From positions 8,245 through 32,244 of the forward strand of contig JAEINP010000053.1 in assembly GCA_016342355.1 (NCBI GenBank): DNA of 24,000 nt. The letters run 5' to 3'. Positions 6,289 through 11,515 of the stretch are shown here, one piece after another. How positions within the stretch are numbered: position 1 is the first letter of the stretch; each line of letters begins with the position of its first letter. The translations under genes were made by a program, and so were the position numbers. The stretch comes from Desulfatibacillum sp. (GTDB lineage Bacteria > Desulfobacterota > Desulfobacteria > Desulfobacterales > Desulfatibacillaceae). The notes below the pieces were generated by a model. The model did not search any database, was not told where the DNA came from, and saw nothing but the letters and a program-made list of their open reading frames with translations.

Positions 6289-8958
6289 ATGAAAACCATA
6301 TATCTTGTTGACGGAAGCGCCTTCATCCATCGGGCTTTCCACGTGGTCCGGGACCTTTCCAACTCCCGGGGGCTGCCAACCAACGCCATTTTTGGGTTCA
6401 CCAAAATGATGCTCAAATTGGTGGCTGACAAAAAACCCGAATATGCCGCCATGGTATTTGACGCCAAAGGCCCCACCTTTCGCCATGACATGTTCCAGGA
6501 CTATAAAGCCAACCGTTCTGCCATGGACGAAGCCCTGGTCGTTCAAATTCCTTATATCAAGGACGTCACCCGGGCCTTTAACATGCCTATGCTGGAAATG
6601 CAGGGCTTTGAGGCCGACGACCTTATAGGCGCCCTGGCCCGGCAGGCGGAAGAAGCAGGATTTATGGTGGTCATGGTCACTAGCGACAAGGACTTCAACC
6701 AACTGGTCACCCACAAATCCGTGGTGTGGGACCCCATGAAGGACGAAACCCGCACCGTGGAAAGCATTAAGGAGACCACGGGTCTGGAGCCGCAAAGCCT
6801 TATCGAAGTCATGGCCCTTTCCGGAGACACTTCGGACAATATCCCCGGCGTCGCGGGCATCGGGCCGAAAACGGCCATCGCCCTCATCCAGGAATTCGGA
6901 AGCCTGGAAGGGGTTTACGAAAACATAGACGCCATAACCAAGAAAAAACAAAAGGAAAACCTCCTGAAATTCAAAGAGGAGGCCTATTTAAGCCGCAAGC
7001 TGGTGACAATCGACACCCATTCCCCCGTGGATTTTAACCCCGAATTCTTCCTCCTGTCAGAACCGGATTCCCCAAAACTAGCCAAACTCTTTTCCGAACT
7101 GGAATTCAGGGATCTGGTTAAGGCCTATCCGGTAAAAACCGACCTCAGCAAAAAAGAATACATCGCCATCACCAAGGCTGAGGATCTCAAAACACTGGCC
7201 GCCAACCTGGAAAAGGCGGGCATTTTTGCGGTGGATACGGAAACCACGGGCATTGATCCCATGCGGGCAGCCCTGGTGGGCATGTCCTTTTCCTATGAGC
7301 CGGACAAGGCTTATTACGTGCCCTGCGCCCATGATTATTTCGGCGCCCCGGATCACCTGTCCGTCAAGGAGGCCGTGGACATCCTGGGTCCGGTCCTGGC
7401 TAACCCGAAAATCGCCAAGGTAGGCCAGAACATCAAATACGACTGGATTATCCTGGCGCGGCATGGGGTGGATCTCCAGGGGGTTTTCTTTGACACCATG
7501 GTGGCCTCGTACCTCCTCAATCCGTCCCACAGGAGCCACGGCCTGGACCAGATCGCCATGGACCTCCTGAACCACCGCATGATCTCCTACGAGGAAGTAT
7601 GCGGCAAAGGCGCCAAGGCCATCACCTTTAACCAGGTGCCCCTGGAACAAGCAGTGCCCTACGCCTGCGAGGACGCCGACGTCACTTTCCAGATTTTTGG
7701 TATTCTCAAACCCAAACTGGAGGAAAACGGCCTTCTGGAACTTTTTGAAACCATGGAAATGCCCCTGGTCAGCGTCCTGGTAAAAATGGAGATGGAAGGC
7801 ATTACCGTGGACCCGGACCAACTCCAGGCCCTGTCCACGGAATTCCAGATAGAACTGGAAAAATCGGAAAAGGAAATCTACCTGATGGCGGGCGAGGAGT
7901 TCAATATTGCATCGCCCCAGCAACTGGGACAGATCCTTTTTGAAAAACTGGGTCTGCCCACCCAAAAGAAAACCAAAAAGAAAACCGGGTATTCCACGGA
8001 CGTCAACGTCCTAACTACTCTGGCGTCCAAGCACGAGTTGCCCGCCCTCATTCTTCGTCACAGGACCGTGGCCAAGCTGAAAAGCACCTACGTGGACGCT
8101 CTGGCCTCCCTGATTCACCCGGAAACCGGGCGGGTCCACACCTCGTTCAACCAGAACGTGACCGCCACGGGCAGGCTGAGCTCCAGCAATCCCAATTTGC
8201 AGAATATCCCCATACGCACCCCCGAGGGAAAACGCATCCGGGAGGCTTTTGTGCCCAGGCCGGGGTGGGAAATGCTTTGCGCGGACTATTCCCAAATCGA
8301 GCTACGCATCCTGGCCCATTTATCCCAGGACAAATTTCTCATTGAATTGTTTCAGCAGGGAGAGGACATTCATACGCGCACAGCCTCGGAAGTGTTTGAA
8401 CTGTTCCCCGAGTTTGTCACCGATGAAATGCGGCGGCAGGCCAAGGCCATCAATTTCGGGATTATCTACGGCATGGGGGCTTTTCGCCTTTCCAACGAAA
8501 TCGGTGTCAGCCGCAAGACCGCCCAACGGTACATCGACAACTATTTCATCTCCTACAAGGGCGTGAAGGAATTCATCGACAGAACCATCGCCCAGGCCCA
8601 CGAAACCGGTATGACCAAAACCCTGGCGGGCCGCACAAGGCCCCTGCCGGACATCAATGCCAAAAACAGGGTCTTGCAGGAGGCTGCCGAACGCATCGCC
8701 GTAAACACCCCCATCCAGGGAACCGCTGCAGATCTTATCAAGATCGCCATGATCCGGGTTCAAAACGCCCTGGAGGAAAAGGGCATGCAGACAAAAATGC
8801 TGCTGACTGTCCACGATGAATTGGTTTTCGAATCCCCGCCCGAAGAGATTTTTCAGGCTCAGATTTTGGCGGAACAACTCATGGAAGGGGTGTGGGATAT
8901 GGATGTTGAGCTGAAGGTCAATATCGAGTCGGGAAAAAGCTGGGCCGAAGCCCATTAA
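6289..8958 (+). CDS. polA: DNA polymerase I (5'-3' exonuclease, 3'-5' exonuclease and polymerase domains)
   Basis: The 889-aa product has the 5'-nuclease region (LSGDTSDNIPGVAGIGPKTA), the Exo I motif FAVDTETTG, and polymerase motifs A (LLCADYSQIELRILAH), B (RRQAKAINFGIIYGM) and C (LTVHDELVFE). Confidence 0.98.
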   Translation: MKTIYLVDGSAFIHRAFHVVRDLSNSRGLPTNAIFGFTKMMLKLVADKKPEYAAMVFDAKGPTFRHDMFQDYKANRSAMDEALVVQIPYIKDVTRAFNMPMLEMQGFEADDLIGALARQAEEAGFMVVMVTSDKDFNQLVTHKSVVWDPMKDETRTVESIKETTGLEPQSLIEVMALSGDTSDNIPGVAGIGPKTAIALIQEFGSLEGVYENIDAITKKKQKENLLKFKEEAYLSRKLVTIDTHSPVDFNPEFFLLSEPDSPKLAKLFSELEFRDLVKAYPVKTDLSKKEYIAITKAEDLKTLAANLEKAGIFAVDTETTGIDPMRAALVGMSFSYEPDKAYYVPCAHDYFGAPDHLSVKEAVDILGPVLANPKIAKVGQNIKYDWIILARHGVDLQGVFFDTMVASYLLNPSHRSHGLDQIAMDLLNHRMISYEEVCGKGAKAITFNQVPLEQAVPYACEDADVTFQIFGILKPKLEENGLLELFETMEMPLVSVLVKMEMEGITVDPDQLQALSTEFQIELEKSEKEIYLMAGEEFNIASPQQLGQILFEKLGLPTQKKTKKKTGYSTDVNVLTTLASKHELPALILRHRTVAKLKSTYVDALASLIHPETGRVHTSFNQNVTATGRLSSSNPNLQNIPIRTPEGKRIREAFVPRPGWEMLCADYSQIELRILAHLSQDKFLIELFQQGEDIHTRTASEVFELFPEFVTDEMRRQAKAINFGIIYGMGAFRLSNEIGVSRKTAQRYIDNYFISYKGVKEFIDRTIAQAHETGMTKTLAGRTRPLPDINAKNRVLQEAAERIAVNTPIQGTAADLIKIAMIRVQNALEEKGMQTKMLLTVHDELVFESPPEEIFQAQILAEQLMEGVWDMDVELKVNIESGKSWAEAH

Positions 8959-9094
8959 AAGCAAAACAGCGGAAAGCTGAAAAAGGGTGTTCCATCCGAA
9001 TAGGAGGTCTTCCGAGCAGTACGTTTTTTCGTTCGAAAGTCTGCGTAGGGGCGCCGCTTGCTGCGCCCTGTGGTTTGGTCCCCCAATCCTCGGG

Positions 9095-9126
9095 GCAGGG
9101 CAAGCCCTGCGGCTACATTGCTGTGG
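9095..9126 (+). repeat. REP-like hairpin repeat, copy 1 (forward)
   Basis: GCAGGGCAAGCCCTGCGGCTACATTGCTGTGG is 32/32 identical to 9921-9952. It contains the palindrome GCAGGGC/GCCCTGC. Confidence 0.7.
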
Positions 9127-9184
9127 TGAAATTCGCGGTGTTTCGGGCGGCTATGCCTGTTGGAATTCATAGGGGGTAAAGCAC

Positions 9185-9695
9185 ATGGCCGACAATCGGT
9201 TAACAGGCCCTTACCGTTCCCTCCGTTTAAAGAGATCCGACTATTCCCGCGCGGGAGCCTATTTCATAACCATTTGCGCCAAGGATCGGAGATGTATCTT
9301 CGGGCATATATCGAAGGAGACAATGGTTTTGGACGATTCCGGGCGGTTGGTGCATAATGCCTGGTATGAATTCCCGGAGCGGTTTCCCCGCCTGCAACTG
9401 GATGCGTTCACAATCATGCCGAAGCATGTTCACGGCATCCTGATTTTTTCTGTCAAAATAGATGGCCCGGTAAAAGGCTTAAAAATGACGTGTTTGCATA
9501 TCGCAACCTGCTGATTATATTAGGTGCGATTTTTCAAAAAAAATGACTTTTTGCATAATCATCAAAATAGTGAAATCAATAGATAGTAATGTCGATTCGT
9601 TTCAAGGCGCGAAAGGCGAGGGGTGTTTCCAGGGCCTGTCCCTTCATCTGCCCAAAATCCTTCCCATCGCAATGTAGACGCAGGGCTTGCCCTGC
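9185..9695 (+). pseudogene. Truncated, disrupted RAYT (IS200/IS605-like HUH-Y1 transposase) copy: HUH half only
   Basis: The first 88 codons differ at only 7 positions from the full-length copy at 10011 and include HVHGILIF. The frame then runs into a ~110-bp AT-rich insert and a stop at 9512-9514. The linker remnant at 9583-9695 is homologous to 10303-10413 but is 1 nt shorter, so it is frameshifted. No catalytic-Tyr half follows. Confidence 0.75.
9664..9695 (-). repeat. REP-like hairpin repeat, copy 2 (inverted)
   Basis: CCATCGCAATGTAGACGCAGGGCTTGCCCTGC. Its reverse complement matches copy 1 at about 29 of 32 positions, and it is identical to 10382-10413. Confidence 0.7.
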
Positions 9696-9819
9696 AAAAA
9701 TTGAATCCGGATTTGCCTCTCATTGGCATGGGGTTGAATTCGGCGCGAATCTTCGCCGGAGCTCAGCATGGAAATTTTTTTGGGCTATTAGGAGTCAATT
9801 TTGATAGGCATAAGTGTAT

Positions 9820-9848
9820 TTGATTTAGTGGTGTTAAAATGGTAATAT
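9820..9848 (+). promoter_or_regulatory. Candidate sigma70-type promoter reading into the full-length RAYT gene
   Basis: TTGATT (9820-9825), exactly 17 nt of spacer, then TAATAT (9843-9848), in a locally AT-rich stretch. A transcript from here would carry the forward REP hairpin in its 5' UTR. Pattern match only. Confidence 0.4.
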
Positions 9849-9920
9849 GAATTATATATGGGATCTTCCGTGACAAGAACGAGTTATCTGCTCATGTGGC
9901 ATCCGCGCCTTTCGAACAAG

Positions 9921-9952
9921 GCAGGGCAAGCCCTGCGGCTACATTGCTGTGG
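9921..9952 (+). repeat. REP-like hairpin repeat, copy 3 (forward)
   Basis: Identical to 9095-9126. It lies 59 nt upstream of the RAYT ATG at 10011. Confidence 0.7.
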
Positions 9953-10010
9953 TGACATTTGCGGTATTTTGAATGGCTATGTCGATTGGAATTACTACGG
10001 AGTAAAGCAC

Positions 10011-10802
10011 ATGGCCGACAATCGGCAAACAGGCCCTTTCCGATCCCTCCGTTTGAAGAGATACGACTATTCCAGGGCAGGAGCCTATTTCATAACCATT
10101 TGCGCTAAGGATCGGAGATGTATCTTCGGGCGCATATCGAAGGAGACAATGGTTTTGAACGATTCCGGGCGGTTGGTGCATAATGCCTGGTATGAATTGC
10201 CGGAGCGGTTTCCCCGCTTGCAACTGGATGCGTTCACAATCATGCCCAACCATGTCCACGGCATTTTGATTTTTTTCGGTGCAATAAACAAATCAGCAGA
10301 CAAGAATGCCGATCGGATTCAAGGCCCAAACGGCGAGGGAGTTTCCAGGGCCTGCATCCCTTCATCCTCCCGAAAACCTTCCCATCGCAATGTAGACGCA
10401 GGGCTTGCCCTGCCTCAGGGAAAGGCTCGTCTTTCCCTGGATAAATCCTCGGCGGAAAGACCTGATTCAGGCAAGGATAGATTGACAATGTCCCATGAAG
10501 CGCAACCCGGCTTTACCTTGGGAGACGTGGTTCGAACCTTCAAATCACTTTCCACAAGGGATATCAACCGCCAATTAAGCCGATCCGGCCCGATCTGGCA
10601 ACGCAATTATTACGAACACGTGATCCGAAACGCCCAATCCCTGAACCTCGCCAGGGAATACATTTTTAACAATTCGGCCAAATGGGCATATGATCGGGAA
10701 AGCCAGGGCATCCATCAAAATGGTTTGGGCTTTTTTAAAACCAAACTTCATTGCCCTTGCCCGGCTTTTTGCAATTCCGCGGCTTTTTGGAAATCCTCCT
10801 GA
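10011..10802 (+). CDS. REP-associated tyrosine transposase (RAYT; IS200/IS605-like HUH-Y1 family), full length, 263 aa
   Basis: The N-terminal RSLRLKRYDYSRAGAYFITICAKDR, the HUH motif MPNHVHGILIF and the catalytic-Tyr helix IWQRNYYEHVIRN, followed by AREYIFNNSAKWAYDRE, are the family signature. I chose ATG 10011 (GGAG SD 8 nt upstream; the same start is conserved in the truncated copy) rather than the ORF-track start at 9858, which reads through the REP. Confidence 0.85.
   Translation: MADNRQTGPFRSLRLKRYDYSRAGAYFITICAKDRRCIFGRISKETMVLNDSGRLVHNAWYELPERFPRLQLDAFTIMPNHVHGILIFFGAINKSADKNADRIQGPNGEGVSRACIPSSSRKPSHRNVDAGLALPQGKARLSLDKSSAERPDSGKDRLTMSHEAQPGFTLGDVVRTFKSLSTRDINRQLSRSGPIWQRNYYEHVIRNAQSLNLAREYIFNNSAKWAYDRESQGIHQNGLGFFKTKLHCPCPAFCNSAAFWKSS
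10382..10413 (-). repeat. REP-like hairpin repeat, copy 4 (inverted), inside the RAYT coding sequence
   Basis: Identical to 9664-9695. It is translated in frame as PSHRNVDAGLALP in the linker between the HUH and Tyr motifs. Confidence 0.7.
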
Positions 10803-11515
10803 GCCTTGGCGGGTTCGTTCATCTGCTGGTAGGTCAGGCCCCTAAAATAAAAAGCCTCGGCGAATTCGGGATATAACTGGATAATCCGGGAAAAATCCTC
10901 CACCGCCCCCTCGTAATCCTTGGTGCCGAACCGGATCACCCCCCGCTTCATGAGGCTTTTGTAAATGCCTTCATGGCCCAGTTCTATGGCTTTGTCCAGA
11001 TCCGGGATGGCCATGTCAAAACGTTTGAGGGCGCTCCATGCCAGGCCCCGATTGGAATAGGCCAGGCCGTTATTTGCGTCCAGGTCGATGGCCTGGGTGT
11101 AATCCTGGATGGCCTTGTCCATCTCATTCATATCGGCGTACACGTTTCCCCGGTTGATAAAGGTCGGGGCCGAGGCAGTGTCCATTTCAATGGCCTGGCT
11201 GAAATCCTCAATGGCTTCGTTGTAGCGTTTCAGGGTCCAATACACCGTACCCCGGTTGTTGAGAGCCGGGACCGCGTATTGGGGGGCATCCTTGTGCAGG
11301 TCTATGTATCGGGTGTACTGGTCGATGGCGGCCAGATATCGGCCTTTGCCTGCTGCGTCAATGGCCCGTTCAAAATAGGTTGTTCCCGGAACCGGCTCCT
11401 GGGGGGTCGGGGCCGAGGCGCAGGACGCGGCCACCATGGCGCATAGGAAGATTGCAGCCGCACGGGTTGCAAACCATGAAACAAACCGTCTGATTTGTTC
11501 GGATTTTTCCAGCAT
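10748..11515 (-). CDS. TPR-repeat protein with an N-terminal signal peptide (probable lipoprotein)
   Basis: The 255-aa product has the signal-like N-terminus RRFVSWFATRAAAIFLCAMVAASCASAP (relaxed lipobox VAASC). At least five TPR units follow (e.g. AYSNRGLAWSALKRFDMAIPDLDKAIEL, AEAFYFRGLTYQQMNEPAKAQEDFQKAAEL). I chose ATG 11515 with AGGAGG upstream. The 448-aa ORF-track extension would overlap cutA and reads as junk. Confidence 0.85.
   Translation of the reverse strand: MLEKSEQIRRFVSWFATRAAAIFLCAMVAASCASAPTPQEPVPGTTYFERAIDAAGKGRYLAAIDQYTRYIDLHKDAPQYAVPALNNRGTVYWTLKRYNEAIEDFSQAIEMDTASAPTFINRGNVYADMNEMDKAIQDYTQAIDLDANNGLAYSNRGLAWSALKRFDMAIPDLDKAIELGHEGIYKSLMKRGVIRFGTKDYEGAVEDFSRIIQLYPEFAEAFYFRGLTYQQMNEPAKAQEDFQKAAELQKAGQGQ

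Follow-up and report, generated by a model that had tools for sequence, protein, structure and literature searches.

The locus analysed here lies in a 24,000-nt stretch of Desulfatibacillum sp. DNA (GenBank assembly GCA_016342355.1, contig JAEINP010000053.1, positions 8,245 to 32,244 of the forward strand; hereafter the window, whose own numbering is used throughout). It carries gene B, predicted to encode a REP-associated tyrosine transposase (RAYT, also TnpAREP; REP, repetitive extragenic palindrome), and upstream of it block A, an old, decaying pseudogene relic that derives from the 5' segment, REP to REP, of a paralogous gene copy. The closest described systems are the REPtrons of TnpAREP subclass 2.4 (RAYT group 4 of Bertels), a subclass defined by the motifs NH[IFV]H, WQ and YIxNNP and already described as having a REP inside the gene (Quentin, Siguier, Chandler and Fichant 2018, PMC6006769). 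Shared with them are an HUH-Y1 core (histidine-hydrophobic-histidine motif, single catalytic tyrosine) with motifs of these types, a long and variable insertion of in-frame REPs between HuH and Y, REPs tagged with GT[AG]G at most 1 kb from the gene, and a patchy distribution with more than one copy per genus. The locus differs in that half-gene copies bounded by an internal REP are absent from that paper, and in its REP, a 7-bp perfect stem 2 nt from GTAG that is seen only beside RAYT genes in the available DNA.

More distant systems share single features. The E. coli REPtron, whose TnpAREP belongs to group 2 (PDB 4ER8; Ton-Hoang 2012, PMC3333891; Messing 2012, PMC3479197), supplies the best structural match and has a REP-flanked gene, but the protein is only ~15% identical to that of gene B, the REPs of E. 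coli are long, imperfect and extragenic and number in the hundreds with none inside E. coli tnpAREP, and no REP-bounded partial gene copies have been reported there. In Marinomonas REPtrons the REPs cluster round tnpA (PMC8266576), and REP1, the repeat described below, likewise lies near RAYT genes. Insertion sequences of the IS200/IS605 family (IS608, ISDra2) have the same fold and chemistry, cleavage sites set by subterminal hairpins and a 5' guide tetranucleotide, and no target duplication. Their ends, however, lie on the same strand and enclose the whole of tnpA, whereas here the REPs are inverted and enclose the HUH half only; the locus is not an element of that family, as half a gene is enclosed and the copies are ~10% diverged with one of them complete. 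Intragenic insertions of REPs and RPEs (Di Nocera et al. 2013, PMC3733652) are also GTAG palindromes carried in frame and tolerated in loops, but there the host genes are unrelated, whereas here the REP sits in the gene for its presumed nuclease and marks a rearrangement breakpoint.

REPINs, units bounded by two inverted REPs and able to fold back in single-stranded DNA, are thought to be mobilised by RAYTs (Bertels and Rainey 2011, PMC3116915). They are ~100 bp long, non-coding and dispersed in tens to hundreds of copies, whereas blocks A and B measure 493-601 bp, contain half a gene with 381 nt (B) or 537 nt (A) between the REPs, and occur as two adjacent copies. Their polarity also differs from that of the RAYT family's own doublets (9045-9116 and the linker doublets): the GTAG heads point inward in the blocks and outward in the doublets. 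An initial reading of the letters alone (the sequence-only reading) had proposed a REPIN stretched to hold part of its own RAYT gene. With the heads facing in, a coding spacer of 381-537 nt and two adjacent copies, the inverted REP pair is all that is shared, and the block should not be filed as a REPIN with cargo.

Duplicated blocks and their boundaries

The features on which the comparison of the two blocks depends are as follows.

9094..9126, minus strand: left REP arm of block A, REP1(-), with GTAG at 9116-9113 and the hairpin at 9110-9095
9185..9514, plus strand: open reading frame (ORF) A, relic of the HUH half, 109 codons with a premature stop at 9512-9514
9464..9572, no strand: 109-nt insertion private to block A, GC ~0.35, a gap in block B (alignment columns 425-533)
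9664..9695, plus strand: right REP arm of block A, REP1(+), with GTAG at 9674-9677 and the hairpin at 9680-9695; 9659-9695 equals 10377-10413 at 37/37
9696..9919, no strand: spacer S, 224 nt of unique sequence between the blocks, AT-rich by composition, upstream of gene B
9920..9952, minus strand: left REP arm of block B, REP1(-), with GTAG at 9942-9939 and the hairpin at 9936-9921, 59 nt upstream of the RAYT start
10011..10802, plus strand: gene B, RAYT/TnpAREP, 263 aa, with NHVH at 10248-10259, WQ at 10596-10601 and YIFNNS at 10659-10676
10382..10413, plus strand: linker REP1(+) of block B, with GTAG at 10392-10395 and the hairpin at 10398-10413, in frame and encoding H-R-N-V-D-A-G-L-A-L

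Block A (9094-9695) and block B (9920-10413) are direct repeats of ~90% identity. The repeat search returned the pair D1 (9094-9393 and 9920-10219; 300 nt, 90%, spacing 826) and the pair D3 (9639-9695 and 10357-10413; 57 nt, 93%), and blastn aligned 356 nt at 90.4% identity (E 1e-140) and a further 125 nt at 84%. In the MAFFT alignment the left edge of homology lies one G before GCAGGGCAAGCCCTGC, at 9094/9920, and sequence further left is unrelated; the right edge is the last C of GCAGGGCTTGCCCTGC, at 9695/10413, after which the flanks (AAAAATTG versus CTCAGGGA) are unrelated at once. Both block ends lie at most 1 nt from the outer foot of a GTAG-tagged hairpin, and each of the two ends of relic A falls no more than 1 nt from a REP's 3' foot, one on each strand. 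Taken by part, identity between A and B is 33/33 in the left REP arm, 44/58 in the leader, 244/264 in the coding part and 37/37 over the last 37 nt of the right arm.

Neither tblastn nor blastn matched spacer S to the Tyr half or to another of the loci examined, a single C-half was found in the window by tblastn, after block B only, and no other copy of the 109-nt insertion or of spacer S was found in the window or in related loci. Because the flanks are unrelated and the edges fall within 1 nt of REP feet, a plain tandem duplication is excluded and breaking and joining at the REPs is implied.

The sequence-only reading had described most of this layout and fared well on it: direct repeats offset by 826 (repeat search and blastn), homology that stops at the outer hairpin edges with diverging flanks (MAFFT, within 1 nt at both edges and with none beyond the hairpins), a left hairpin repeat identical in both blocks (33/33 over 9094-9126 and 9920-9952), and HUH halves with 7 differences in 88 residues followed by a Tyr half after block B only (residue comparison and tblastn). 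Its view that a plain tandem duplication is not the explanation likewise agrees with the unrelated flanks and with a 224-nt spacer that holds no Tyr-half relic. It overlooked four features: the 109-nt insertion in block A together with the stop of ORF A at 9514, the in-frame position of B's right-hand hairpin within the gene, the GTAG tags of the hairpins, and the separate GTAG hairpin 26 nt to the left of block A.

Gene B

In the product of gene B, NHVH occupies residues 80-83 and the putative catalytic tyrosine is Y217 in YIFNNS. The protein scored 25.1 bits against Pfam Y1_Tnp (cutoff 23) and 61 bits (E 1e-16) against NCBIfam NF047646 REP_Tyr_transpos, the latter in two stretches split by the linker and under the curated 80-bit cutoff of this equivalog, which is built on RAYT groups other than subclass 2.4. 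By sequence the best match in the PDB was a weak one to E. coli TnpAREP 4ER8. An AlphaFold model calculated with 46 homologues had a predicted local distance difference test score (pLDDT) above 90 in the core (residues 21-90 and 170-230) and below ~55 in the linker (93-165); its first Foldseek match was 4er8_A (E 2e-5), and the top 30 were all TnpAREP, IS608, ISDra2 or IS200 transposases. All 23 of the 23 invariant columns of the family alignment are kept. Judged by sequence and model, gene B is an intact HUH-Y1 gene of the RAYT type, an assignment made in the sequence-only reading and upheld by the Pfam, NCBIfam and PDB sequence and structure matches.

The start at ATG 10011 is favoured by homologues. 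The public entry for this protein (P0001, 215 aa, 'hypothetical protein', from a metagenome-assembled genome (MAG) of Desulfatibacillum sp.) starts at TTG 10155 and misses the first 48 codons. At its other end the ORF continues ~30 codons past the usual end of homologues (WAYD-x-ENP), over 10710-10802, with a tail of low pLDDT, and overlaps by 55 nt a convergent tetratricopeptide repeat (TPR) gene on the minus strand that ends at 10748. Neither the GTAG-hairpin scan nor hairpin matches placed a REP 3' of gene B in the window; the 3' end of the REPtron may be truncated, since a 3' REP is present at the related loci of D. alkenivorans (L001) and of two related contigs (L002 and L003). A promoter and terminator scan gave nothing above shuffled expectation, and the Rfam search gave only the sub-threshold hit to whalefall-1 described below.

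REP hairpins

The GTAG-hairpin scan identified the hairpins as canonical REPs of the form GTAG-N2-GCAGGGC-TT-GCCCTGC (REP1; degenerate pattern GTAG-N2-[GT]CAGGGCTTGCCCTG[CT]), all of them GTAG-tagged, which upholds the sequence-only reading's view of the repeats as REPs. In each block the left REP is on the minus strand and the right REP on the plus strand, with the GTAG heads inward and the hairpins as outer edges. The 16-nt hairpin has four sites in the window, all at the RAYT locus (0.35 expected; 0 of 100 shuffles reached four). The arms of block B (9919-9976 and 10358-10415) are 58 nt long and 78% complementary, and those of block A (9095-9126 and 9664-9695) are 32 nt long and 91% complementary. 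In block B the hairpin foot is followed on both strands by a C-T step: on the plus strand GCCCTGCC then TCAGG, with the step between 10414 and 10415, and on the minus strand GCCCTGCC then TTGTT.

Two further hairpins lie close to the blocks.

9045..9068, plus strand: REP2, another GTAG hairpin from the same scan, GTAG-GGGCGCCGC-TT-GCTGCGCCC (GTAGGGGCGCCGCTTGCTGCGCCC)
10416..10440, plus strand: second in-frame hairpin, CAGGGAAAG-gctcgt-CTTTCCCTG, encoding Q-G-K-A-R-L-S-L

REP2 and the REP1(-) 26 nt to its right form a heads-outward doublet (9045-9116) just after the polA stop (8958), which looks like the RAYT family's true REPIN-type unit outside a gene. Read on the minus strand, the order of this doublet matches the family linker consensus V-G-A-G-L-A-L-P ... 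G-A-A-S-S-A-P-T and the V-G-A-G-L-A-L-P ... G-A-A-S-G-A-P-T linker of distant RAYT homologues.

The hairpin at 10416-10440 is without a GTAG tag and outside the duplicated block; it is kept as GGAAAGGC-TT-GCCTTTCC in the D. alkenivorans (L001) linker. The DNA fold of 10375-10450 was calculated at -15 kcal/mol (z = -3.5). A stretch covering the linker REP (10387-10427, plus strand) matched Rfam whalefall-1 (RF01762) below threshold, at 18.3 bits against a gathering cutoff of 37 (E 0.1-0.3); the linker REP covered by this match has CUUG in its hairpin loop and UCAGGG after the hairpin. Whalefall-1, an orphan motif from metagenomes, might be a REP-like element in its own right.

The linker REP as a trait of the subclass

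Positions 10392-10413, GTAG-N2-GCAGGGCTTGCCCTGC, encode V-D-A-G-L-A-L-P, in frame, in the stretch that separates the HUH motif from the Tyr motif; the HuH-to-YYEH distance in gene B is 116 aa, and the linker is disordered in the model. In-frame linker REPs are likewise present in D. alkenivorans and related contigs (proteins P0002-P0004; loci L001-L003). Among the best 120 homologues, which come from many phyla, most carry V-G-A-G-L-A-L-P ... G-A-A-S-S-A-P-T or analogous linker peptides, sometimes in 2-4 tandem copies, and these peptides are translated GTAG-headed palindromes. A metagenome scan seeded with the N-half returned 80 subclass-2.4-like loci, of which the best was 58% identical and none a close relative; GTAG/CTAC-tagged GC-rich linker hairpins with very diverse stems were present in >40 of ~75-80 of these loci, and the same hairpin was also found in the flanks in ~18.

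Gene B itself carries the subclass 2.4 signature as NHVH, IWQRN and YIFNNS, the last with S instead of P at its final position, where the relatives P0002 and P0003 read YI[IR]NNP. Canonical REPs lie within the ±1000 nt range around the gene: REP1(-) 59 nt upstream, 9095-9116, 9674-9695 and REP2 at 9045-9068. The locus is thus a REPtron of TnpAREP/RAYT subclass 2.4. Since the linker REP is present in orthologues and in the subclass, the REP-in-gene layout is a family trait and not a product of the duplication. The supposition that a copying event had placed the right-hand REP therefore fails, the REP being already there in the orthologous linkers of L001-L003.

In two homologues (P0005 and P0033) in-frame REP-encoded peptide insertions are flanked by a repeated segment, ...NHVHGI / ...RIHAIAAF, a pattern suggestive of a REP entering the linker and duplicating a portion of the HUH strand.

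Block A as a decayed copy

ORF A is 58.7% identical to residues 1-143 of B by tblastn and matches NCBIfam REP_Tyr_transpos at E 1.5e-4 over the N-half only. Its reading frame is broken by the 109-nt insertion, which contains a 14-nt direct repeat (9481-9494 and 9539-9552), and the linker length of B is that of P0002 and P0003. All seven replacements among the 88 residues of the HUH halves fall on the A lineage when P0002 and P0003 are used as outgroups. Among them, N50D, L63F and N80K alter residues that are invariant or conserved to at least 90%, N80 being the invariant N of NHVH.

At neutral-like sites the two copies differ at pS ~0.19, the proportion of synonymous differences. The REP arms are identical at 70 of 70 positions, for which the chance at ~9.5% divergence is ~1e-3, so the arms are under constraint or have been homogenised. 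The ratio of nonsynonymous to synonymous differences (pN/pS) between A and B is 0.22, and placing all replacements on A gives omega ~0.4 (p ~0.03 against neutrality, from 20 substitutions and with transition bias uncorrected), which hints at a coding phase in the past of A. A once-complete second gene, later truncated at its linker REP, explains these data as well as a copy that was truncated from birth.

Breakage at the linker REP in other loci

Several of the loci found with the N-half seed carry an HUH half but no Tyr half, and do so at a distance from the contig ends. In L013 a double-foot REP immediately precedes the end of the ORF and the ribosome-binding site of the next gene comes after it, and in L026/L027 unrelated DNA follows two linker REPs. 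L048 carries at 2036-2400 an N-half-only copy 1.85 kb from a full copy; it shares 97-98% identity with this full copy and with L044's full gene, and the match breaks off inside the loop of the final linker hairpin, GGGCGGGG-GCAAG-CCCCGCCC. In L057 (400-990) it is the Tyr half that is duplicated in tandem (297 nt, 89% identical): the duplicate starts ~10 nt ahead of the linker REP, GGAACGGATAAATCCGTTCC-CTAC, which stands in front of both Tyr-half copies, and the second copy is frameshifted. A tRNA scan of the relic loci found none.

Breakage at or in the intragenic REP clearly recurs in independent loci and is not unique to the window. These loci come from a search seeded with the N-half, which biases the frequencies of N-only and C-only relics. 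No published description of half-gene copies delimited by an internal REP was found; Quentin et al. 2018 discarded partial sequences (PMC6006769).

Related genomes and distribution of REP1

The locus lies between polA and the convergent TPR gene. PolA orthologues of 85% identity in D. alkenivorans DSM 16219 (L084-L086) and 89% in a second relative (L087) also have the convergent TPR gene next to them, and the polA-TPR spacers of both relatives (0.76-1.3 kb) contain no RAYT and no REP1, homology to the window stopping at 8966-8986. With RAYT and REP1 both missing there, the whole A-spacer-B locus is an acquired, lineage-specific insert at a variable site. Of the empty site for block A that had been anticipated in relatives, sites without the RAYT locus were thus found, but they lack the locus as a whole and do not isolate block A.

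The polA-TPR spacer of L087 has two other GTAG hairpins, at 8511 (plus) and 8777 (minus), inverted and ~266 nt apart; the site seems to collect REP-like elements in this lineage.

RAYT paralogues in the genus occupy other sites, with lutC-like neighbours in L002/L003 and between mrr-like and trkH-like genes in L001. At L002/L003 a REP(-) lies 75-95 nt upstream, the linker REP(+) 380-390 nt further and a third REP(-) 0.66-1.0 kb downstream. At L001 the linker REP(+) and a 3' REP(-) are 379 nt apart and there is no 5' REP. The pair of 5' REP(-) and linker REP(+) at ~380 nt spacing is thus found in 3/4 Desulfatibacillum-clade loci. After the third REP(-) of L002 and L003 (11332-11457 and 11554-11640, respectively) there is an 87-126-nt copy of the 5' leader at 83-85% identity, which in L002 includes the first 10 codons; these partial REPtron copies do not end at a REP.

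Outside the window the repeat was found as a 27-mer core beside the D. alkenivorans RAYT (L001), in line with the expectation of the sequence-only reading that it would occur elsewhere; the core is identical in the 3' flank of that RAYT, which is only 52% identical in protein. This was its one occurrence in 185,579 representative genomes, a set that does not include the source MAG, under a strict pattern that variants of the L002/L003 type escape. Across ~109 kb of Desulfatibacillum DNA there are 12 copies of REP1, all at most 1.1 kb from a RAYT gene and none in L084, L086 or L087. In the DNA covered, REP1 does not look like a dispersed REPIN family; these 12 copies, confined to RAYT loci, and the single 27-mer match give no evidence of one.

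Origin of block A

The reading that we favour, at about an even chance, is that relic A arose by breakage and rejoining at REP feet with the RAYT as the most likely agent. The RAYT would introduce breaks at the feet of REP hairpins; copying or insertion would then have placed the REP-bounded 5' segment 224 bp upstream, or else a second gene copy, at first complete, would have lost its 3' half at its linker REP, the internal REP acting as the breakpoint in both cases. A would later have decayed through the insertion, the stop codon and the loss of invariant residues, and the REP arms would have stayed identical, presumably because they were still bound or used by the enzyme or were homogenised.

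E. coli TnpAREP binds GTAG and the hairpin on single-stranded DNA, cleaves between C and T on either side of an inverted REP and in linkers, and carries out strand transfer (PMC3333891). The S. maltophilia enzyme cleaves at CT 3' of its REP, and Marinomonas REPs are, like REP1, short perfect palindromes 2 nt from GTAG (PMC8266576). The left edge of homology lies exactly at the C-T step of block B, and the right edge 1 nt before one. As characterised TnpAREP enzymes cut between C and T beside the palindrome, and B has such a step one base past each foot, the RAYT is the likeliest cutter, although its catalysis of these cuts is argued by analogy and may not hold. The sequence-only account, in which the enzyme or recombination at the hairpins had copied a REP-bounded unit with part of the RAYT gene, survives in part: the alignment does place the ends at REP feet, but the unit is not a stretched REPIN, and later truncation fits equally well.

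Several observations weigh against RAYT-dependent breakage and rejoining. The two C-T steps are on opposite strands, whereas HUH single-strand excision requires two cuts in the same strand; on the plus strand a C-T step is missing from the left boundary, and the right boundary stops 1 nt short of one. The cleavage-site rules applied here to subclass 2.4 are extrapolated from groups 2 and 3 and may differ. In L048 the break is in the hairpin loop and not at the foot, which looks more like host palindrome processing, and the identical 33-37-nt REP1 arms could support ordinary homologous recombination. The hint of a coding past for A fits a once-complete copy better than one born truncated. The A/B arrangement is known from one MAG contig alone, and among the relatives retrieved (L084-L086 and L087) no site lacks only block A.

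A host-mediated origin without RAYT catalysis is a possible alternative, though rather on the unlikely side. Two complete REPtrons would have stood side by side (or one would have come by transfer) and the upstream copy would have lost its 3' half by hairpin-stimulated deletion or REP-REP recombination, the left boundary being simply where homology between REPtrons naturally ends; Campbell-type integration of a circle of the order spacer-REP(-)-HUH-REP(+) through the 37-nt linker REP identity, for example, would give the observed order. The low pN/pS is in keeping with this, all replacements being on the A branch and yet fewer than the neutral expectation, as are the fuller REPtron-like 5' flank of A with its REP2/REP1 doublet, the loop break of L048 that palindrome processing would be expected to leave, the simple tandem duplication of L057, and the partial copy of 5' REP and leader in L002/L003 that does not end at a REP. 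Yet both block ends, and not the right one only, lie at most 1 nt from a hairpin foot, the spacer bears no trace of the Tyr half or of REPtron 3' sequence, and the C-T step beside both feet fits a nuclease. The paired REPs are also mutually inverted, so that a simple REP-REP crossover would yield an inversion and not a duplication.

There is a slim chance that the arrangement is an assembly chimera, in which the contig joins strain variants or paralogous loci at identical REP arms and A and B are adjacent in no real genome. The contig comes from a MAG (P0001 and P0121 bear the name 'MAG: Desulfatibacillum sp.') and identical repeats of 33-37 nt are potential graph junctions. Nevertheless, A and B are only ~90% identical with unique flanks on both sides, as collapsed or unrolled alleles would not be; a misjoin would need a further REP1(+) directly left of the spacer in another genome; and analogous arrangements occur in the unrelated contigs L048 and L057. 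We keep the estimate low because of the unique flanks and because the polA-TPR synteny, whose two genes flank the locus and are neighbours also in two relatives, anchors both ends.

We consider it very improbable that the 5' REP(-)/linker REP(+) pair is a functional module with which the RAYT inverts, excises or exchanges its own HUH half, for self-regulation or cassette exchange, and that A is a silent or spent cassette. The REP pair and its ~380-nt spacing do recur in 3/4 Desulfatibacillum-clade loci, the arms are perfectly kept while neutral sites have diverged by ~20%, and the arms of B are inverted repeats of 58 nt at 78% complementarity. Against this, A is decaying (stop codon, insertion, N80 lost), none of the loci showed an inverted or excised configuration, L001 has no 5' REP, and in most subclass 2.4 loci neither the number nor the position of the flank REPs is constant. 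Plain slippage unrelated to the hairpins has a negligible chance and was rejected, despite direct repeats only 826 bp apart, as homology stops at both hairpins, and the spacer is related neither to the sequence after B nor to that before A.

The favoured reading of REP-foot breakage by the RAYT can be carried further to the proposal, which we think unlikely, that the linker REP of subclass 2.4 RAYTs would be a live recombination site and that the enzyme would move, duplicate or swap half-genes by way of the REP pair bracketing the HUH half.

Neighbouring gene

The minus-strand gene contains, at 10976-11334, a 102-nt periodic direct repeat in four copies of 63-78% identity, corresponding to 34-residue TPR repeats. 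It is unrelated to the RAYT finding.

Implications

The hairpin-in-gene layout was already known; what is added here is a nucleotide-precise, REP-delimited half-gene relic together with recurrent breakpoint loci. By itself the window contributes one REPtron of a described subclass and a pseudogene relic, and does not demonstrate the agent of the cuts. The locus bears on the movement of REPs and REPINs in cells: cleavage and strand transfer by TnpAREP are documented in vitro only, and no evidence of tnpAREP mobility is reported in the literature (PMC8266576). The REP-delimited half-gene relic is a plausible but unproven scar of cutting or recombination at hairpins, and it makes RAYT activity in vivo testable without demonstrating it. 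Segment ends at REP feet provide concrete junction sequences for assays with purified enzyme, and they define a class of event, the breaking of a partial RAYT copy at its intragenic REP, for which thousands of subclass 2.4 genes can be surveyed. If the linker REP is indeed a live recombination site, block A and the half-gene copies of L048, L013, L027 and L057 would be in vivo footprints of RAYT cutting and joining, activities so far seen in vitro only.

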